A stretch of DNA of 10,418 nucleotides from Promethearchaeota archaeon (GCA_048941265.1 JBHLNT010000151.1:1-10418), one strand, 5' to 3'. Shown: positions 3,484-10,418, numbered from the stretch's first letter. The notes: a model not told the origin generated them from the letters alone. Translations and numbers: made by a program.

Positions 3484-4473
3484 TTATTCTTTAAAAAGCA
3501 GTTTCTTCGCTACTTCAAAAGCATAATTATAATCAAAAACCTTTAAACCCTTACAATTTGCGGCTTCTTTAAGTATTTGTCCCTCAGAATTTGATTTAAG
3601 CTGGCCTAGAGCCATAGCGCCAATACCAAAAATTCCTGGATATATTTCTTCATTTTTATGTTTAGGTTTTAGACCCTCTATTCCGTAGGGTGGTACTAAA
3701 TTTATATCTACAACAATTTTTTTACCTTTAAGCCTTTGCATTAAATCTTCTGAAAGAATCTCAACACCCGCAGCAGCTAACGACCAAATTATATCTGCGT
3801 CTTTAGCAATTTCAAATCTTTCCTCTGGATCTGGAGCAAAAACTCCCTTAATTTCCCCAGCTTCTTTTCCGGCTTCTTCTGTTAATTCTTTTGCGAGGTT
3901 TTCGATAAAATTTTTGCTTGATTGTTCCCAAGTTTCAATTAAAAAAGTATTGCAATTAATTTTTGCCGCCAAAATTGCTGCAATTCTCCCTACAGGTCCC
4001 GCACCAAATACCACTACTTTTTTTCCTCTCAAATTTTTTATTCCATGCTTTTTATCGGCAATATGCATGGTCATTGCAACCACAGCGGATGCTGTTGTAT
4101 GAGATCCACGAGGATCTATAATCACAGGGCATTCAAAAGGGGTAACTAATGAGTTTATCACCTTTTTAGCAATACTTTCACCCTCTTTTACATTGGACCC
4201 TCCTATGAAAAATGTAGTAGCAGCACCCGGTTTCCGAGAAAAAATAGCATCTTGAACTAGCTTAGGAACTTGATCTGCTGTCATTTTACTAATAGGCACT
4301 ACAATATCAAAACCCGCATCATAGGCCATATTTATATCGAAAGGTGAAGCATTATCATCTGTATCAAAGAAATAACATATTTTATCTGACTTCTCTACCT
4401 TTTTTATTTTAATTGGTGTTAATTCTATTATGGTTTTTCTTCCTAATATTTTTTCTACTTCACTTCTTTGCAT
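3484..4473 (-). CDS. mtdB: NAD(P)-dependent methylene-tetrahydromethanopterin (or methylene-H4F) dehydrogenase, MtdA/MtdB family, with an N-terminal extension of about 30 aa
   Basis: Motifs SPFDINMAYDAGFD, LVQDAIFSR, DPRGSHTTASA, Rossmann VVVFGAGPVG, DINLVPPYGIEG and GIGAMALG..K match the Mtd family. An RBS-like GGAGTTGA lies upstream. The MtdA versus MtdB assignment is uncertain. Confidence 0.85.
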   Translation of the reverse strand: MQRSEVEKILGRKTIIELTPIKIKKVEKSDKICYFFDTDDNASPFDINMAYDAGFDIVVPISKMTADQVPKLVQDAIFSRKPGAATTFFIGGSNVKEGESIAKKVINSLVTPFECPVIIDPRGSHTTASAVVAMTMHIADKKHGIKNLRGKKVVVFGAGPVGRIAAILAAKINCNTFLIETWEQSSKNFIENLAKELTEEAGKEAGEIKGVFAPDPEERFEIAKDADIIWSLAAAGVEILSEDLMQRLKGKKIVVDINLVPPYGIEGLKPKHKNEEIYPGIFGIGAMALGQLKSNSEGQILKEAANCKGLKVFDYNYAFEVAKKLLFKE

Positions 4474-4534
4474 ATTTTATCAACTCCAATAACTTTTTTT
4501 TAAATTATTTAAATTTTAATAAAAAAAATCCTTT

Positions 4535-5260
4535 TTATTTCTCAGGAATTTCAATTTCAATCTCATCTTCTTGTTCCTTCTCCACTTCTTTAATAGTTCT
4601 CTTGATTTTTATCTGTTCAGTTTCTACACCTAATTCATTTGCTAATTTATCAAGGCCATTAAAATGTCTAAGATCACAGATAAATAGTCCTTTTAATTTT
4701 TTACCGTTGACATCCCTTGCAAGATTTAGTATATTCATCATCATCCATGCTTCACGTACTTTATGTCTTACTTCATCTTCCTGCTCTTCATAATCTCGAT
4801 GTAAATATTCTTTCCATAAAATTAATTGCTGGAAAAATTCATCATTTTCAGGAACTCCGCCTTTTTTTTCTATCATTTCTCTGATCCTTATCTCGAGCTT
4901 TTTTATACTTTCTCTATGGTCATCTAAGGCAACTGACAAATAATCGCTCGCATTTTCCGAAATATCCCCAAGTTTGAATGGAATATTTTTTTCTTTAAAT
5001 AATTTTATCAATGGATCATTAGGGTTAAGCGTATCATCTCTCATACCTTTCTCTTCCATAGCGAAATCAGGGTGATATTTCTCTATTAAATCTTCAATTA
5101 GGCCCAGATATTCCTTGGAAATTAGGTGTAAATTCCAGATAAGGTCTTCTTTAGCTTTCTTTGGAGCTTCAAACCACCATTCAACTGGAAATTCACTTTC
5201 AACCATTATTAATTTCAAATGCTGTTTCTTTAAAGGCTCTAATTCTAAAACTTCAGGCAT
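4535..5260 (-). CDS. Uncharacterised protein (241 aa), possible TraB/PrgY/Tiki-like alpha/beta fold with a helical insertion; paralog of 5286..5903
   Basis: Full ORF with AGGAGG RBS. Motifs IEKYHPDFAMEE, VREAWM and LFICDLRHFNGL are reminiscent of TraB-family 'PDxVxVE', 'RxxxM' and 'VVGxxHxxGI'. It has an acidic C-terminal tail. The fold call is by eye only. Confidence 0.7.
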   Translation of the reverse strand: MPEVLELEPLKKQHLKLIMVESEFPVEWWFEAPKKAKEDLIWNLHLISKEYLGLIEDLIEKYHPDFAMEEKGMRDDTLNPNDPLIKLFKEKNIPFKLGDISENASDYLSVALDDHRESIKKLEIRIREMIEKKGGVPENDEFFQQLILWKEYLHRDYEEQEDEVRHKVREAWMMMNILNLARDVNGKKLKGLFICDLRHFNGLDKLANELGVETEQIKIKRTIKEVEKEQEDEIEIEIPEK

Positions 5261-5285
5261 TTTTATTATCCCTCCTTTTTTTATT

Positions 5286-5903
5286 TTAAAATATTATATT
5301 TTTAATTGTATGTTTTTTATTATATTGAATAACTTTAACATTATATTCTCTTAAATACTCAACAACTTGTGAACAGATATCTTCACATATATCTGTTTGA
5401 ACAAAATGAACAAAATTGACATCATCTTCTTGAAAATTTTTCGCGAGATCCAACATCTTTTTCACGATCCACATAGGTCTAATCTTAAGAGTAAGATGAT
5501 TTTCTTTTTCTTGAATTTCAATATTTATCAAATCTATCCAATTTTTTAGACTTTGACCCTTATATGAATCCCTATCTTCCAAATTTACATATTCTTCAGT
5601 TAAACCTGTGAGCAACTCCTCCTTTTCCATAATTTCCTCATAAAGATACCCCATTGCATATTCCGGAATATCTACTTGATAATATTTAATTCCCAATTTA
5701 TCTAATGCCTTAGCAAACGGGGTCCTGCTGAAATCTTTAAGATCTATATCAAAGTCAACCGTAACAAAATTAATTTTGTTATTACTTAGAAAATTTTTTA
5801 ATAAATCTGGATCAGTACTTTGAAGACTCTTACTATTTTCCTTCGCGAATATAAAAGCTGTGACTTTTTTATTTTTTATTGGTTTAATTTCTAAAACTTC
5901 CAT
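5286..5903 (-). CDS. Uncharacterised protein (205 aa), paralog of the flanking 241-aa and 74-aa proteins
   Basis: Full ORF co-oriented in the cluster, with an RBS-like GAGTTGA and visible sequence similarity to both neighbours. Confidence 0.75.
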   Translation of the reverse strand: MEVLEIKPIKNKKVTAFIFAKENSKSLQSTDPDLLKNFLSNNKINFVTVDFDIDLKDFSRTPFAKALDKLGIKYYQVDIPEYAMGYLYEEIMEKEELLTGLTEEYVNLEDRDSYKGQSLKNWIDLINIEIQEKENHLTLKIRPMWIVKKMLDLAKNFQEDDVNFVHFVQTDICEDICSQVVEYLREYNVKVIQYNKKHTIKNIIF

Positions 5904-5965
5904 TTTTTCATCAACTCTTTTTTAATCTTGAATTTTTTAATTATAATAAAAAATTAAAATAAATT

Positions 5966-6190
5966 TTAAACCTCAGATCTCAGGTTGTCTATTAGCACTT
6001 CAAGATATTGAGCGTTGAATGATTCTTTATCAGTTATCTCGTTATATGCTTTTTCAAATCCTCTTAATCTTTCCATCTTTTCTGATCGTTCATATTCAAA
6101 ATAGGCGGTTGCATATTCAACCCAAAAATCTTCATCAGTCATTTTTTCTTCTTTATTCATAAACTCCATCTTAACTTCAGTCACTTCCAT
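5966..6190 (-). CDS. Small acidic helical protein (74 aa), stand-alone homolog of residues 81-130 of the 205-aa protein
   Basis: GAGGTG RBS 7 nt upstream of the ATG. An ungapped manual alignment with the downstream protein gives 18/50 identities. Confidence 0.8.
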   Translation of the reverse strand: MEVTEVKMEFMNKEEKMTDEDFWVEYATAYFEYERSEKMERLRGFEKAYNEITDKESFNAQYLEVLIDNLRSEV

Positions 6191-6301
6191 TTACAAACAC
6201 CTCTTTTTTTAGTAATTTTTACAATTTTTTTTTATTAGTATCCTAAGATTATATTCAAATAGTCGGATTATAAAGAATTTGATAAGAAAAATTTTAGTCT
6301 T

Positions 6302-6323
6302 TTTGACAAATATTTTTGTCAAA
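6302..6323. promoter_or_regulatory. Perfect palindrome TTTGACAAA-N4-TTTGTCAAA, candidate transcription-factor operator
   Basis: 9-bp perfect inverted arms in the divergent intergenic region. Degenerate copies with identical spacing occur at 6332-6351, 6410-6429 and 6570-6589. Confidence 0.6.
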
Positions 6324-6501
6324 TCGATATTTTAACAAAATAAATTATCAAGATTTTGCATAGCTTTAAACATGTCTTAAGGATATTGGTTAAAATTGTC
6401 ATTCATGACATGAAAACTTTTTTTGTCAAAATATTTGATAAAACTAACCTTTTTTAAATCATATTAGAAATAATATCCTTGAGTTATGTGAAATATTAAT
6501 G

Positions 6502-6527
6502 ACTTTCGAAGATGGATTTTCGAAAGT
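6502..6527. repeat. Inverted repeat ACTTTCGAA-N8-TTCGAAAGT
   Basis: 9-bp perfect arms read directly from the sequence. Confidence 0.6.
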
Positions 6528-6547
6528 TGATCAAACAATTTTTATTC

Positions 6548-6631
6548 TTGATAGAAATATTTATAAATCTCGACAACAATTATTGTCATGTCGAAAAGAA
6601 AAATTGTTAAATTAGTCATATTTATTATCAA
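6548..6631. promoter_or_regulatory. Phased array of degenerate TTGACA-N8-TGTCAA boxes upstream of the HTH-hdrA gene
   Basis: TTGATA-N8-TATAAA (6548), TCGACA-N8-TGTCAT (6570), TCGAAA-N8-TGTTAA (6591) and TTAGTC-N8-TATCAA (6612), spaced 21-22 bp apart. Confidence 0.45.
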
Positions 6632-6675
6632 GATCCTAAATATTAAAAATTTAAAAATATGGTGGAGATGATGTT

Positions 6676-9234
6676 ATGTTGGATATATATTCAATCTTAT
6701 CTCATCCTTTTAGAAGAAAAATCCTTTTGCTCCTGGAAAAAGAAGGGTATATTCCATATACAGATTTGATGGAAAAGTTGGGTCTTGAAACAACGGGACA
6801 ATTAAATTTCCACCTAAAAAAAGTTGGTAGTTTAGTTAACAAGGATCAAAAATCATATTTTCTTACGGAAGATGGAAAACGGATCTTAAAAATCATTAGG
6901 ATTAATAAGAGAATTTTAGAGGGAGAGGATATTAATGAATATTTAGAATCTAAGGGGAGTGAGATAAGTCGTGTTGGTGTTATTGTATGTAACTGTAATA
7001 CAGAAATATCAAAAGCGATTAACATCGATCTTCTTGAAAATTATCTAACTAAATTAAAGAATGTAGTTTCCGTTAGAGTATTTGATAATTTATGCCAAAC
7101 AAAGAATTTTGACAAGATTTCAAAATGGGTCAAAGAGAATTTTTTAAATAAAATCGTTATAGCAGCATGCTCTCCAAAAACCCATCAGATTCTCTTTGAA
7201 AGAATTTTTCAAGATGTAATTGATCGTGCTAATATTGAAATCGCTAATATTAGAGAACAATGTGCTTGGGTGCATTATTATAACGCTGATCCTAAGCAAA
7301 TAGATCCTTACCTTATCTTAGATAAAGCAAAATTATTAATTGAGGCTGCTATTGCGCGCGTAATTCTTCAAAAAGAAGTGAAAATTAAACGTGTTGAGAT
7401 AGAGAAAAGCTGTGCTGTTCTTGGAGGAGGCATTGCTGGTATGACTTTAGCTTTAAATTTAGCTAGAGCAGGGATAAAAGTATTTCTAATTGAGAAATCT
7501 CCTACTTTGGGCGGTAAAGTAGCTAGGTGGAATCGAATTTATAAAATGGGAGATTGTTCTATTTGTTTCATATCAGAATTAATAGCAGAGATTGTTAAAG
7601 AAAAGAATATTAAAGTTTTTACTAATACAGAAATAGAAAATGTATCTGGAGAAGTTGGGAACTTCACACTTGATTTAGTAAAAAAACCGAGATTTATAGA
7701 CGAACGAAAATGTACTGGCTGCAAACAGTGCCTTGAAGTATGCAATATAGAAAAATCCGATCAGTATGAGTTTGGTTTAAAGAATAGAAAAATTATATAC
7801 ATTCCTTTTATACATTCTTTTCCATATGTGCCTTTAATTGATGAAAGTGATATTAAAAATTGCCTTAATTGTAGGATATGTGAAAGGGCTTGTGTGAATA
7901 AAGCTATAGATCTGAATCAAGTTCCAGAAAATATAAAAATTAAAGTTGGGACAAAAGTTATCGCTATTGGTGCTGATCTTACCTCTAATTTAGAAGAATT
8001 TGGTTATAATCCGCAAGATGATATTATTACTTCTGCTGAATTTGAGCGAATTTTATCTTCAGATGGCATTACCGAAGGAAATTTGGTAAAACTTTCTGAT
8101 AGAGAACCACCAAAATCAATTTCAATAGTTCAGTGTGCAGGTAATTCTGATTTTCATTCGAAATTTAAAGATGCCATTGTATTAAAATATATAGATAGTA
8201 TTACAGGGAGGTTGCCTCAATGTGAAATTAATGTCTTTTATGATTTAAACAAATTCAAAAAAGATAAAGCTTTTTTCCTGACACCTATGGATAAAAGATT
8301 TCATTACGCGCAAAAATTAAAAATTATTGGAAAAAACAACAAAAAATATGTCATTGCAGATTCACAAGAATATCCTAGTGATATGATAATCCTAAATATA
8401 GATCTTATTCCAAATACTGATTTAAAAAATCTACGTACAATAATGGATTTTTCCTTAAACGATGATGGATTCATGAGCGAAGAAACATTAGGATCTGGGA
8501 TTTATGGCATTGGAACTATTTTGGGTCCTCTTGATTATCATAAAACGGTTTCTACTGCAAACAATGTGGCATTAAAAGTGATATCTTTACTTTCTCAAGA
8601 ATATTTAATAGCAGAATTTACCGGAATTGAAATTAATGAGGATAAATGCGGTTTATGTGGCTTATGCATGCAATCTTGCCCTTATAACGCAATTGTTATA
8701 GGAAATGAAAGAATAAATGTTGATAAATTTAAATGCAAAGGGTGTGGTACTTGTGTGAGTGTTTGTCCTACTAATGCGATTGAAATGAATGTTGACACTT
8801 CTGAGAAAATACTTAAAACGATTGAAATATTATCGAAATCGAAAAGAACTCCAAAAATAGTGGCATTCTGCTGTAAATCCTGTGGATATGCAGCCGCAGA
8901 TGATGCTGGATTTAAAAAACTCCATTATGATCCAAATATCTTTATTATAAGAGTCCCTTGTACCGGAAGGGTGGACACAAACTTTATTATTAAAGCTATT
9001 GAGTTTGGTTTTGATGGAGTCATGATAATTGGATGTAGAAGGAATGCATGCAGGTATATTGATGGAGTAGAAAAAGTAGAAAAAAAAATTCAATTATTAA
9101 GGGAAATTTTAGGCCCCAAATATGGCAATCGCATTATTCTCAAACACATGAATGCTGTTGAGGGGAATAAGTTTGCAGAAGTTATAAATGAATTTTATAA
9201 TCAATTGGCCGAGGAGGTAAAATTTGAAGCTTAA
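6676..9234 (+). CDS. hdrA: Fusion protein: ArsR-like winged HTH, HdrA-like flavo-iron-sulfur domain (heterodisulfide reductase subunit A) and C-terminal MvhD (hydrogenase delta, [2Fe-2S])
   Basis: Residues 1 to about 80 read LSHPFRRKILLLL...YTDLMEKLGLETTGQLNFHLKKV...YFLTEDG (wHTH). HdrA motifs: RVGVIVCNC, AACSP, NIREQCAWVH, GGGIAG, EKSPTLGG, DCSIC and EFERIL, plus four CxxCxxCxxxC ferredoxin motifs. MvhD motifs: FCCKSCGYAAAD, RVPCTGRVD and DGVMIIGCRRNACRY. RBS GGTGGAG at 6661-6667. Confidence 0.92.
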   Translation: MLDIYSILSHPFRRKILLLLEKEGYIPYTDLMEKLGLETTGQLNFHLKKVGSLVNKDQKSYFLTEDGKRILKIIRINKRILEGEDINEYLESKGSEISRVGVIVCNCNTEISKAINIDLLENYLTKLKNVVSVRVFDNLCQTKNFDKISKWVKENFLNKIVIAACSPKTHQILFERIFQDVIDRANIEIANIREQCAWVHYYNADPKQIDPYLILDKAKLLIEAAIARVILQKEVKIKRVEIEKSCAVLGGGIAGMTLALNLARAGIKVFLIEKSPTLGGKVARWNRIYKMGDCSICFISELIAEIVKEKNIKVFTNTEIENVSGEVGNFTLDLVKKPRFIDERKCTGCKQCLEVCNIEKSDQYEFGLKNRKIIYIPFIHSFPYVPLIDESDIKNCLNCRICERACVNKAIDLNQVPENIKIKVGTKVIAIGADLTSNLEEFGYNPQDDIITSAEFERILSSDGITEGNLVKLSDREPPKSISIVQCAGNSDFHSKFKDAIVLKYIDSITGRLPQCEINVFYDLNKFKKDKAFFLTPMDKRFHYAQKLKIIGKNNKKYVIADSQEYPSDMIILNIDLIPNTDLKNLRTIMDFSLNDDGFMSEETLGSGIYGIGTILGPLDYHKTVSTANNVALKVISLLSQEYLIAEFTGIEINEDKCGLCGLCMQSCPYNAIVIGNERINVDKFKCKGCGTCVSVCPTNAIEMNVDTSEKILKTIEILSKSKRTPKIVAFCCKSCGYAAADDAGFKKLHYDPNIFIIRVPCTGRVDTNFIIKAIEFGFDGVMIIGCRRNACRYIDGVEKVEKKIQLLREILGPKYGNRIILKHMNAVEGNKFAEVINEFYNQLAEEVKFEA

Positions 9235-9982
9235 GTTTTCAATTATTTCTTTAACTGGATGTAGTGGATGTATATCTACATTAATTTCACTTGATATTTT
9301 CCCTCAATTTTTAGAAAGGACTGAAATTTTATATTTTCCATTTATTAATGACACGAGAAAAGTTGAGAATTGTGATGTAGCATTAATAGAGGGATGTATT
9401 TCGGAAAAAAGTGAAATTAATTTTCTTAAAAATATAAGAAAGTCCGCAAAAAAAGTTTATGCCTTAGGTTCTTGTGCAGCTTATGGGGGAATCTTAAGCC
9501 TTTCAGATAAAATTAATGCAGAACCGATTTCAAATTTTATAGAGATAGATGGGTTAATTCCTGGTTGCCCAATCCCATCTAAATTACTCGGGAATTGCTT
9601 AATTAAATTAATCGAAAATAAAGAGATAGAATTATCCGAAAGAAATCTGTGTGCAACATGCCCTTTTAATGGAACCTTAGATTTAGATTTTAAAACAAAA
9701 GTAATTAAATATTATCCATCCCAAGATGAGATTTTAACTCCTGAAGAAAATTCAAATTGTTTTTTGAAGCGAGGAATTCTGTGTTTCGGTCCCATTACCC
9801 GAGATGGATGTGAACAAAGATGTATTTCACAGGGAATTCCCTGTGAGGGGTGTATGGGCCCTGTTTCAAAAGATTATTTTGCTAATATGATTAATTATCT
9901 AAGTTTAATAAAGCTTTCAGAGGAATTAAGAAGATATAAAGGAATTTTTTATCGATTTTCAAAACCAAAACTTAATTGGTGA
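9224..9982 (+). CDS. mvhG: [NiFe]-hydrogenase small subunit, group 3 (MvhG/VhuG-like)
   Basis: Motifs LTGCSGC, EG, GSCAAYGGI, IPGCP, CATCP and CFL..G.LCFGPITRDGC...C......CEGCMGP. No Tat signal. TTG start with GAGGAGGT RBS at 9211-9218, overlapping the upstream gene by 11 nt. Confidence 0.88.
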   Translation: MKLKFSIISLTGCSGCISTLISLDIFPQFLERTEILYFPFINDTRKVENCDVALIEGCISEKSEINFLKNIRKSAKKVYALGSCAAYGGILSLSDKINAEPISNFIEIDGLIPGCPIPSKLLGNCLIKLIENKEIELSERNLCATCPFNGTLDLDFKTKVIKYYPSQDEILTPEENSNCFLKRGILCFGPITRDGCEQRCISQGIPCEGCMGPVSKDYFANMINYLSLIKLSEELRRYKGIFYRFSKPKLNW

Positions 9983-9987
9983 TCGTA

Positions 9988-10418
9988 ATGCTAAAAGTTG
10001 TTGAAGTATGCTCTCGGGTTGAAGGACATGGTAATATGAATTTATATATTAATAATCAAAATGATGAAATTTCACATGTTGATTTTGAAATTAGAGCTTA
10101 TCGAGGATTTGAAGATATTTTAATCGGTAAAAAATTGATTGATATCCCTAAAATCACATCAAGAATATGTGGATTATGTCATGCCTCCCAATCCATCGTT
10201 AGTTGTAAAACTATAGAATCTATTTACGATGTTGTGCCATCAGAACGTTCAGTTCTTTTAAGAAGACTATTATTAGCAGGAGAATTGATAAAATCGCATA
10301 GTTTGCATTTCTTTTTTCAATCTTTTCCGGATTTATTGAAGATCTTTAATATTAAGCAGAAAATTCCGTCTCTTTATGAATTAATAAATTATAATCCCCA
10401 ATTAACAACAAATTTTTA
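9988..10418 (+). CDS. mvhA: [NiFe]-hydrogenase large subunit, group 3 (MvhA-like), 5' part; runs off the window end and is not in the ORF track
   Basis: Manual translation from ATG 9988 gives MLKVVEVCSRVEGHGNMNLYINNQNDEISHVDFEIRAYRGFEDILIGKKLIDIPKITSRICGLCHASQSIVSCKTIE...LIKSHSLHFFFQSFPD. It contains RVEGHG, RGFE, the L1 RICGxC and SHxLH motifs, with GGTGAT RBS upstream. The frame is open to the end of the window. Confidence 0.92.
   Translation, partial: MLKVVEVCSRVEGHGNMNLYINNQNDEISHVDFEIRAYRGFEDILIGKKLIDIPKITSRICGLCHASQSIVSCKTIESIYDVVPSERSVLLRRLLLAGELIKSHSLHFFFQSFPDLLKIFNIKQKIPSLYELINYNPQLTTNF

Follow-up and report, generated by a model that had tools for sequence, protein, structure and literature searches.

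The stretch of DNA analysed here, a sequence of 10,418 nucleotides from a Promethearchaeota archaeon (GCA_048941265.1 JBHLNT010000151.1:1-10418; hereafter the window), is the whole of contig C157 in a genome of 5.0 Mb and 361 contigs, and all positions are counted along it. Its central feature is an open reading frame (ORF) of 852 aa on the plus strand (6676-9234), in which a winged helix-turn-helix (HTH) domain, an HdrA-like flavo-iron-sulfur core and an MvhD domain are fused, as judged from the ORF list, Pfam, phmmer searches of the PDB, an AlphaFold2 model and Foldseek. A TTG codon at 6679 on the same strand is an alternative start and matches the family N-terminus MDIYSIL. Two genes for a [NiFe]-hydrogenase follow on the plus strand, namely that for a small subunit resembling MvhG/VhuG (9224-9982; Pfam Oxidored_q6), whose first 11 nt are shared with the fusion gene, and that for a large subunit (9976-10416; Pfam NiFeSe_Hases), of which the N-terminal 147 aa are present as the contig ends inside mvhA. 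When compared with solved HdrA structures (5ODC, 8RVU), the HdrA core of the fusion protein had three of the four cysteines of the thioredoxin-reductase-domain [4Fe-4S] cluster replaced.

The phmmer searches paired the core with the HdrA chains of the Elp-Hdr (8rvu_a, E 2.9e-112), Mvh-Hdr (5odc_A, E 5.6e-108, 621 query residues against 645 residues) and Fdh-Hdr-Fmd (7bkb_A) complexes, and the C-terminus with MvhD chains (E 6e-25; 5odc_D, E 1.8e-26). Pfam recognised DUF7347 at aa 3-74 (40.9 bits, cut-off 27.6), FAD/Rossmann families at about aa 246-287, 4Fe-4S ferredoxin domains (Fer4) and FlpD at aa 728-845 (122.9 bits, cut-off 22.3). The top NCBIfam model was that of HdrA2, the HdrA-MvhD fusion type (592.5 bits, E 1.2e-177, residues 99-846), but all equivalog cut-offs were missed (592.5 vs 1100 bits for HdrA2; 425.5 vs 1300 and 376.4 vs 1400 bits for HdrA). 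The AlphaFold2 model, built from an alignment of 53 sequences, had a mean predicted local distance difference test score (pLDDT) of 85.4, and Foldseek matched it to 8rvu_A (E 2e-59, TMt 0.81) and the Hdr core 8rwn_A (TMt 0.84, root mean square deviation 2.9 A). The Rossmann/FAD matches in Pfam, the invariant GGGxxG motif and the TMt values of 0.81-0.84 to solved HdrA showed that a thioredoxin-reductase-like fold with a site for flavin adenine dinucleotide (FAD) is present. On these comparisons the protein is predicted to be an HdrA-MvhD fusion of the HdrA2-like kind, to whose N-terminus a winged helix resembling that of ArsR is flexibly tethered.

In the phmmer alignment, QCAGNSD......FHSKFKDAIVLK of the query was paired with IQCVGSRDAKvgNKYCSNVCCmyaMK of 5odc_A, and residue equivalences were counted along the printed 5odc_A row. 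Cys386 of 5ODC was kept as C487, while Cys399, Cys403 and Cys404 corresponded to H494, K498 and D499, respectively. The remnant of the loop, QCAGNSDFHSKFKDAIVLK (8131-8187; this and all other features of the fusion gene lie on the plus strand), thus retained one of the four cysteines, was six residues shorter than the canonical loop and ended in K504, the equivalent of K409. The other flavin residue, E356 in the environment of flavin N5, was kept as E457 (8044-8046), the second glutamate of the EFER motif. Downstream, the canonical eight-residue segment AHPKLRPV was missing and appeared as a gap at the junction of E602 and E603 (8479-8484). Our own translation of 8131-8570 and the alignment reproduced what the original prediction had read, including the replacement of three cysteines by H, K and D, the retained terminal lysine and EFER motif, and the absence of HPKLxPV. 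Two further changes that it had listed were real, but with qualifications. The motif GACQGPKD has become GTILGPLD, but its cysteine is not conserved in canonical HdrA paralogs, so that the change is uninformative on any cluster and does not represent the loss of a ligand. The change of LDKTFPTNDC to WNRIYKMGDC was found at aa 285-294 (nt 7528-7557), in the same ORF but outside the region 8131-8570 to which it had been assigned.

The other cofactor sites were examined in a crown-clade set of 138 sequences, consisting of 119 database proteins, 18 copies from genomes of the window's own genome family (f1) and the query. Both K504 and E457 were present in 138/138. The N-terminal HdrA domain (6961-7380), delimited by alignment to solved HdrA, holds C105, C107, C140 and C165, which were found in all 138 relatives and all outgroup sequences. 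The dinucleotide-binding motif GGGIAG of the FAD site (aa 250-255, 7423-7440; Pfam NAD_binding_8, Pyr_redox_2 and FAD_oxidored) had G250-G252 and G255 invariant in the 53 aligned sequences, and the CSIC pair C294/C297 (7555-7566), aligned with Cys197/200 of 5ODC (Cys202/205 of M. marburgensis), was invariant as well. The same held for the eight cysteines of the two CxxCxxCxxxC motifs in the inserted ferredoxin domain (346/349/352/356 and 396/399/402/406; 7693-7911) and for those of the two CxxCxxCxxxCP motifs in the C-terminal ferredoxin domain (658/661/664/668 and 687/690/693/697; 8623-8835; Pfam Fer4 and alignment), with C690 in 99%. Between these domains, the C-terminal FAD-binding region GSGIYGIGTILGPLD (aa 606-620, 8491-8535) showed conserved G608, G613 and G617, and it is presumably the GD-type motif of this fold. 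In total, all 22 HdrA cysteines of the N-domain cluster, the CxxC pair and the two ferredoxin domains were present. In the [2Fe-2S] domain of MvhD (8848-9231), assigned by Pfam FlpD, the 5odc_D alignment and column counts, C733, C736, C762, C787 and C792 were invariant in the 138 relatives and C732 was found in 97%. The selective nature of the loss, with one cluster gone and the remaining cofactor sites intact, was hence confirmed, in agreement with the statement in the original prediction that the N-terminal cluster, the four ferredoxin clusters and the MvhD cysteines had been preserved. Alternative ligands that might restore the cluster were sought in the alignment, and no new conserved set of cysteines was detected; only C246 and C516 were lineage-specific, and C516 was found in the Cys-retaining forms too. 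A reading of QCAGNSD in the former cysteine loop as a restored NAD(P) site was rejected, as the family consensus contains no GxGxxG/A.

The columns of Cys386, Cys399, Cys403 and Cys404, together with the CxxC pair, hold the only invariant cysteines of the thioredoxin-reductase domain, and the four are by elimination the probable ligands of the cluster designated HA4. HdrA is described in passages of PMC9012536 as a four-domain protein, and the cluster of its thioredoxin-reductase domain is presented there, as well as in parts of PMC13580544 and PMC12350162, as the exit towards HdrBC. According to the relevant passages of the latter two papers, the high-potential electron leaves FAD via HA4 on its way to the HdrB site, while HA3, a mobile C-terminal "shuttle" cluster, hands the low-potential electron on to two clusters of the inserted ferredoxin domain, HA5 and HA6; HA3 is placed in the C-terminal ferredoxin domain in the model described in part of PMC12350162. 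A role for the CxxC pair of HdrA is also described in sections of PMC9012536 and PMC13580544. As far as these published structures are described in those passages, the cluster lost in the window protein is the flavin-proximal one, as had been proposed, and leads to HdrBC. The module thus showed retention of the input side (the [NiFe] subunits, the MvhD [2Fe-2S] cysteines, the CxxC pair and FAD) and of the low-potential side, together with loss of what is taken as the high-potential exit.

The loop at 8131-8187 was the least conserved segment in the crown clade, with a mean majority fraction of 0.537 against 0.68-0.88 elsewhere, which would fit relaxed constraint after the loss. The same variability is what could be expected of a degenerating paralog or of an assembly artefact without function, but such an explanation is highly improbable and is already contradicted by several observations. 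The ORF is intact over 852 aa with all other ligands invariant, the same state was found in 138 relatives, and the family is single-copy in the genome. Contigs of three DNA sequencing runs from two studies spanned 7900-8700 without an indel, and their sole difference inside 8131-8187 was a minor-strain letter at 8173 that makes no Cys codon. The altered loop is neither a product of chance nor an assembly error.

The distribution of the loss was investigated at several levels. A word-indexed protein search gave 546 matches, and the best 120 of these were 65-88% identical to the window protein, nearly all of them about 849 aa long with DUF7347; the source names among the closest relatives listed included Promethearchaeota or Lokiarchaeota archaeon. 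Within this set of the best 120, the C487 column held Cys 34 times and Glu 48 times, Cys was practically never found in the columns of the three other ligands, and K504 was found in 120/120. In a wider sample of 151 genomes spread evenly over the phylum, full-length matches including the HTH were detected in four genome families, which were f1 (fusion in 18 of 25 genomes), f19 (4 of 6, ~55% identity, one copy being partial, with residues 421-847 at the start of a contig), f16 (4 of 5, ~52% identity) and f12 (6 of 19, ~40% identity). In another family, f21, all three genomes contained a protein of 38% identity that matched from residue 97 only and had no HTH. The crown-clade sequences had 0 to 2 cysteines in the four ligand columns, three or more being found in 0/138, and three f19 sequences had one each. 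All four cysteines were found in each of four f16 and four f12 copies, as well as in six of seven outgroup paralogs, the seventh showing a CC..GC variant.

A FastTree phylogeny of 57 sequences and 842 columns, for which every sixth database protein was kept, was rooted on the paralogs and gave the topology (f12,(f16,(f19,f1))); the HTH family as a whole had a support of 0.995, the f16+f19+f1 group one of 0.806 and the f19+f1 group one of 1.0. An exhaustive search of 50%-identity cluster representatives was also carried out. Among the best 150, 148 covered the region and two were C-terminal fragments; six were HTH-fused. The ligands were missing in two of the 148, P0025 and the partial P0126, both HTH-fused, so that the loss is rare among the nearest HdrA relatives. 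Four other HTH-fused representatives (P0123, P0124, P0125 and P0128, 35-41% identity) retained four cysteines with the spacing C-x5/6-C-x3-CC. The non-HTH representatives covering the region all had four cysteines, four of them in the CC..GC variant and one with a long insertion. The six-residue shortening of the loop and the eight-residue deletion occurred in every HTH-fused form examined and in no non-HTH form shown, the f21 proteins having retained the canonical loop and an AHPKLRPS segment. The tree and the Cys counts together indicated that ligand loss was a derived event inside an older HTH-fused family; by this reconstruction, the ligands were lost in the f19+f1 crown clade, after the HTH had been fused and the two deletions had occurred. 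The loss was accordingly not common to all HTH-fused homologs, as all eight f16 and f12 genome copies and four of the six HTH-fused representatives keep the four cysteines. This polarity, and the restriction of the loss to part of the HTH-fused homologs, are new.

Gene neighbourhoods were compared in loci fetched with up to ~8 kb on each side (less at contig ends), comprising 16 HTH loci (7 f1, 3 f19, 3 f16 and 3 f12) and 2 f21 loci. ORFs of at least 90 aa were clustered into 128 groups, and all 128 representatives were scanned with Pfam. A downstream mvhA was found in 16/16 HTH loci, with full-length orthologs of 434-452 aa, and an mvhG-like ORF lay between it and the fusion gene in 15 of the 16, the remaining locus (L050) having a 128-aa ORF of another cluster there. 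The three-gene [NiFe]-hydrogenase module is therefore conserved in Loki-type Asgard archaea. The top NCBIfam match of the small subunit was VhuG (E 3.3e-36), and those of a large-subunit ortholog were ShyA of sulfhydrogenase (E 8.4e-56) followed by VhuA (E 5.6e-41), all below the cut-offs, so that an assignment of the enzyme to group 3c (Mvh-type) is tentative. The Pfam scan detected no hdrB or hdrC in the window, as had been noted before, and no HdrB/CCG gene among the ORFs within ~8 kb in any of the 16 HTH loci, the HA4-retaining ones included. Elsewhere in the window's genome there were 52 CCG-domain matches (e.g. on contigs C202, C307, C155 and C301), none of which adjoined the module, and the module itself was single-copy, the other HdrA paralogs of the genome being 32-36% identical. 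In the f21 locus L064, genes for a polyferredoxin, an HdrC-like protein and HdrB lay directly downstream; the other, L063, ends just past the gene.

Some additional features of these loci may be mentioned. Both f21 loci contained molybdopterin-oxidoreductase and RnfB-like Fe-S genes upstream, and L064 additionally had a Molydop_binding gene, with CODH/ACS subunits nearby, so that the f21 locus looks like an Hdr-Fwd type cluster without hydrogenase genes. In the f16 loci (L057-L059), the HA4-retaining HTH module stood beside molybdopterin-oxidoreductase, Molydop_binding and polyferredoxin genes, with an apparent further HdrA-like gene, split by the ORF caller; in these loci mvhA was followed by an NnrD/YjeF gene for NAD(P)HX repair. 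Five of the seven f1 loci (L047, L048, L050, L052 and L053) and none of the f19, f16 and f12 loci encoded, directly after mvhA, a protein of 340 aa with two cysteines. It matched no Pfam or NCBIfam family, and the window contig ends before the position of its gene.

In the solved Mvh-, Elp- and Fdh-Hdr complexes, the flavin is connected to HdrC and HdrB through HA4 only, and a protein without HA4 would be unable to couple H2 to heterodisulfide reduction. The loss of the HA4 ligands and the absence of HdrB/CCG genes nearby in 16/16 loci make canonical heterodisulfide-coupled bifurcation very unlikely. The explanation that we favour, to which we give about an even chance, is that the fusion protein serves as a flavin/iron-sulfur partner of the hydrogenase without HA4, acting as a two-port H2/ferredoxin device whose tethered HTH regulates the locus. 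One port would start at the [NiFe] site and reach FAD by way of the clusters of MvhG, the [2Fe-2S] cluster of MvhD and the Cys pair; the other would connect FAD with ferredoxin or a polyferredoxin, first via the C-terminal shuttle cluster and then via the pair of clusters in the inserted ferredoxin domain. To judge from the retained sites, the activity would most likely be reversible electron transfer between H2 and ferredoxin. The host type is thought to ferment amino acids and to shed reductant as H2, as described in part of PMC7015854. In such a fermentative Asgard host, reduced ferredoxin would probably be the donor and H2 the product, no high-potential partner being involved as a third party, and because this reaction is downhill, confurcation would not be needed.

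Several observations weigh against this reading, and the label "non-bifurcating" that the original prediction had attached to the protein is unproven. Passages of PMC12054007 propose that K409 and E356 at flavin N5 tell bifurcating from non-bifurcating HdrA, and the equivalents of these hallmark residues were invariant in 138/138 sequences. Such an invariant pair would fit a still-bifurcating flavin better than a simple relay. By our reasoning, a flavin with crossed potentials gives up its first electron at too high a potential to feed the low-potential branch, so that a two-port relay would need a retuned flavin. With 52 CCG matches elsewhere in the genome, synteny alone leaves room for an HdrBC partner in trans. 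Since the deeper clades keep HA4 without an hdrBC gene nearby, missing neighbouring hdrBC is not in itself diagnostic; moreover, those clades hold HA4 under evident constraint, which suggests some use of HA4 in the family other than with HdrBC. The RNA runs searched for the window region 5900-10418 included none found to hold the stretch. The assignment of the four cysteines to HA4, reached by elimination, is to that extent presumed. Finally, every biochemically characterised group 3c hydrogenase oxidises H2 in cells (PMC11216029). The electron input path may differ too: the residues equivalent to H68 and D71 of MvhD, which in M. marburgensis touch an unknown ligand on the HdrA Cys pair according to passages of PMC13580544, read R788 and A791 in the window protein and R/N/S and A/S, respectively, in the crown clade. 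Across the HTH-fused clades, the H68 position was His in f12, Lys in f19 and mostly Gln in f16, and the Asp of D71 was kept in none, Ala or Ser standing in its place.

The retained flavin residues bear directly on a serious rival to the two-port device, namely that the module still bifurcates or confurcates by way of a third partner that does not need HA4. The candidates would be a hydride-type substrate or carrier (NAD(P), F420 or a C1-carrier enzyme), for whose reaction close to or at the flavin the shortening of the loop would have made room, or a protein partner such as the dehydrogenase with an Mpt_N domain that is encoded next to the module and has an N-terminal domain without an assignable fold. 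In the window, three conserved genes run divergently on the minus strand (3484-5903), encoding proteins of 205 aa (5286-5903) and 241 aa (4535-5260) and a 329-aa Mpt_N/Rossmann dehydrogenase (3484-4473), as judged from Pfam Mpt_N and synteny; the last is the only Mpt_N gene of the genome. It was syntenic in 6/7 f1, 3/3 f19 and 3/3 f12 loci, lying directly downstream of the module on the same strand in f12, and absent from the 3/3 f16 loci. This association, the operator-like sites that precede the Mpt_N gene in f12, the invariant K409 and E356 equivalents and the direct reaction of F420 at an HdrA2-type flavin that is discussed in part of PMC12054007 would all agree with a third partner. On the other hand, the former Cys loop, with the consensus ISIIQxVGxS, has no Gly-rich dinucleotide motif, and the Mpt_N protein keeps a Rossmann motif of its own and hence would not need to dock directly. 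The synteny was also independent of HA4 status, as f12 had both, f1 and f19 had Mpt_N without HA4, and f16 had HA4 without Mpt_N. The 241-aa domain, in turn, has one cysteine and no cofactor motif. On balance, we regard a third partner as a possibility to be taken seriously, though an unlikely one.

Blastp comparison showed that the 241-aa and 329-aa proteins are the halves of a single protein of ~560 aa in other genomes, with 48-61% identity to the fused copy in L049 (f1) and 28-47% to those of f19 and f12; the fused copies include L054:11578-13257 and L060:4128-5822 besides that of L049. Most f1 loci have the two separate genes, and the fused form is found in f19, in f12 and in one f1 genome, where it is present twice. 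The 205-aa and 241-aa proteins are distant paralogs (25% identity over 150 aa), are Asgard-specific and matched no Pfam or NCBIfam family. An AlphaFold2 model of the 241-aa protein had a pLDDT of 77.4, and a Foldseek search of the PDB with it gave nothing at E 0.001 or better. In the Atlas, the protein fell only into Asgard clusters of its own, the nearest named cluster being TraB/PrgY/GumN at 0.82, which is a lead only. A wide VIA-align comparison gave at best Z 9.2, to the N-domain of a precorrin-type methyltransferase (97 residues), and Z 8.2 to ChaN (145 residues), values in the commonplace range, and a TraB/ChaN-like fold is not convincing.

The N-terminal domain of the fusion protein (aa 1-81, 6676-6918) was assigned as an ArsR-like winged HTH from DUF7347, which scored above its cut-off, and from the order of secondary-structure elements in the AlphaFold2 model (H-H-E-H-H-E-E-H); its sequence match in the PDB was weak (1y0u_A, a putative ArsR repressor, E 0.018). 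The linker that follows (aa 82-95, 6919-6960) had pLDDT <50 and is predicted to be flexible. The HTH was among the best conserved parts of the protein, with a mean column conservation of 0.873, aa 40-46 conserved in 135-137 of 138 sequences and the presumed recognition-helix stretch TTGQLNFHLKK nearly invariant.

A scan for palindromes covered the 450 bases preceding each copy of the fusion gene, that of the window as well as those of the 16 loci. The top-ranked palindrome, TGACAA-N6-TTGTCA, occurred in 5 of the 17 upstream regions. In the window, it extended to the perfect palindrome TTGACAA-N6-TTGTCAA at 6303-6322; this site lies in the divergent promoter region and may be the operator to which the fused HTH binds. 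Three degenerate copies followed at 6332-6351, 6410-6429 and 6570-6589, the last of them 86 nt before the ATG and just past a TTTATAAA box, which may be a TATA element. With up to two mismatches allowed, four matches were found in the window, all of them within 6303-6589, against 0.15 expected from shuffles. The perfect site occurred once in the 5.0-Mb genome, as did the degenerate pattern TTGAYAA-N6-TTRTCAA, and the reversed control was not found. In the 16 loci, sites with up to two mismatches numbered 16 in 8 kb upstream of the fusion gene, compared with six in the 34 kb examined from other intergenic regions, and the reversed control gave 0 in both. The sites were clear in f1 and f19, weaker in f12, where operator-like sites also precede the Mpt_N gene, nearly absent in f16 and absent in f21. 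An ORF of 74 aa (5966-6190, minus strand) between the 205-aa gene and the palindromes would reduce the divergent promoter region to ~6191-6675.

The conserved HTH and the genome-unique promoter palindrome support a regulatory side role with autoregulation, as far as can be judged from sequence. In the two-port device, the tethered HTHs, presumably two per HdrA dimer, would bind the palindromic site or sites in the divergent promoter, and the enzyme so bound would also regulate its own operon and the neighbouring Mpt_N-dehydrogenase genes. This side role is probably older than the cluster loss, as the HTH fusion predates it, and sensing brought by the HTH would not follow from the loss. The sensory role suggested in the original prediction hence gained support as regulation, but not as a consequence of the missing cluster.

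These data also bear on the explanation that the protein is mainly a sensor, in which the hydrogenase charges the flavin and the Fe-S chain according to H2 or the redox state of ferredoxin and thereby sets DNA binding by the HTH; the loss of HA4 would have shut the catalytic outlet and turned the enzyme into a dedicated H2- or redox-responsive transcription factor. The highly conserved HTH on its flexible tether, the genome-unique palindrome in its own promoter with related sites enriched upstream of the orthologs, and the lost high-potential outlet agree with this idea. However, HA4-retaining clades have the HTH fusion and operator-like sites as well, so that sensing is independent of the loss. 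The 16 cysteines of the ferredoxin-side outlet, which would be superfluous for a dead-end sensor, were invariant in 138/138. The identity of 65-88% over 850 residues in more than 100 relatives is, in our judgement, more typical of a core enzyme, and the genome contains no other copy of the module, its other HdrA paralogs being only distantly similar. We therefore consider a pure sensor improbable, and it is a weaker rival than a third partner, given the invariance of the ferredoxin-side wire and an HTH that was present before the loss.

A bolder proposal, speculative and unlikely in our estimation, is that the whole hydrogenase complex works as a transcription factor. H2, the redox state of ferredoxin or both would be sensed via the [NiFe] site, MvhD, the flavin and the clusters that are left, and the resulting state would reposition the two tethered winged helices of the HdrA dimer on their private palindromic operator and so switch the complex's own operon and the Mpt_N genes. 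In the crown Loki-type clade, the loss of HA4 would have freed the module from a heterodisulfide-type partner, leaving an H2 valve combined with a sensor.

When compared with known systems, the window protein is descended from HdrA/HdrA2 and works like them in its general design. It shares the four-domain fold of the HdrA subunits in the MvhAGD-HdrABC, Elp-Hdr and Fdh-Hdr(-Fmd) complexes of methanogens (5ODC, 8RVU/8RVY, 7BKB and 9SW2; Foldseek E ~1e-59, TMt 0.77-0.81), along with the N-domain cysteines, the CxxC pair, both ferredoxin domains, the FAD site, the E356/K409 pair, the MvhD partner and the adjacent MvhG and MvhA genes. Unlike those proteins, to which it is ~30% identical, it has no HA4 ligands, carries the six- and eight-residue deletions, a fused MvhD with changed H68/D71 and an N-terminal HTH, and has no hdrBC nearby. 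HdrA2 of Methanosarcina ('type Ia' HdrA; NF040770), a type dealt with in part of PMC12054007, has the same arrangement of HdrA with a C-terminal MvhD, but according to passages of that paper it keeps the HA4 cluster and works with HdrB2C2, and it has no HTH. Also similar are the deep HTH-HdrA-MvhD clades (f16, f12, P0123, P0124, P0125 and P0128), with which the window protein shares the HTH, the shortened loop, the eight-residue deletion, the RWxxI..DCxxC motif, the fused MvhD, the mvhG-mvhA operon and the absence of hdrBC nearby, whereas these clades keep the four cysteines as C-x5/6-C-x3-CC and are 35-52% identical to it. Two defining tests of a bifurcating HdrA, the HA4 ligands and the association with HdrBC genes, thus gave a negative result, and all curated cut-offs were missed.

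The reverse pattern is seen in sHdrA of Hyphomicrobium denitrificans (6TJR), which shares the thioredoxin-reductase-like flavoprotein core (Foldseek E 4.9e-20, phmmer E 2.4e-12). This minimal HdrA of 349 aa has no ferredoxin and N-terminal domains and retains the core cluster only. As to the possible mode of regulation, the fusion protein may be likened to PutA, a trigger enzyme in which a redox enzyme controls transcription through a ribbon-helix-helix domain, and to the H2-sensing regulatory hydrogenase HoxBC of the HoxBC-HoxJ/HoxA system, which signals via a separate kinase. The likeness is in mode only, with no sequence relation, and rests on the operator statistics; unlike in PutA and HoxBC, the DNA-binding domain is here fused to a hydrogenase flavoprotein. 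A literature search, mostly at the level of abstracts and outside figures and supplements, found neither an HTH-fused HdrA nor an HdrA devoid of the thioredoxin-reductase-domain cluster described. The surveys of HdrA diversity in PMC9012536 and PMC12054007, as far as their accessible text goes, cover methane-metabolising archaea, and their charts of Cys retention per class (Fig 8B and Fig 1B, respectively) may show such losses.

The loss bears on how the H2 metabolism of these archaea is described. Reconstructions of Asgard metabolism routinely label the [NiFe] hydrogenase "MvhADG-HdrABC", electron-bifurcating or confurcating. In passages of PMC7015854, for instance, it is described as the only hydrogenase that Prometheoarchaeum syntrophicum has, and as the enzyme by which electrons of reduced ferredoxin reach H2. 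The hydrogenase-linked HdrA described here probably does not work like the methanogen enzyme as usually annotated. If a large Loki-type clade indeed has no wire to HdrBC, the one route having been lost, that label would be wrong for those organisms, and their H2 metabolism, which is central to syntrophy models of eukaryote origins, would depend on an H2/ferredoxin device that is simpler or in any case different. The sister clades with and without HA4, with a flavin site otherwise invariant, also provide a natural experiment on flavin-based bifurcation. If the HTH binds its private operator, this would be a new coupling of hydrogenase state to gene control.

Other observations concerned the remainder of the window and genome. 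A QueG-like protein (epoxyqueuosine reductase; 66.5 bits against a cut-off of 200) with a ferredoxin-type Cys motif near its C-terminus is encoded at 164-955 on the plus strand of the window. The genome is unusually rich in HdrA paralogs and in CCG domains of the HdrB/HdrD type, including double-HdrA proteins of 900-1170 aa. The window fusion protein contains no in-frame TGA, and several canonical HdrA/MvhD paralogs (C251:10008-11888, C350:4475-6382, C301:40525-42444 and one on C47, with MvhD-like frames beside them) were broken solely by one to three in-frame TGA codons, which fits the selenocysteine-containing HdrA/MvhD reported for Asgard archaea (PMC11227280).

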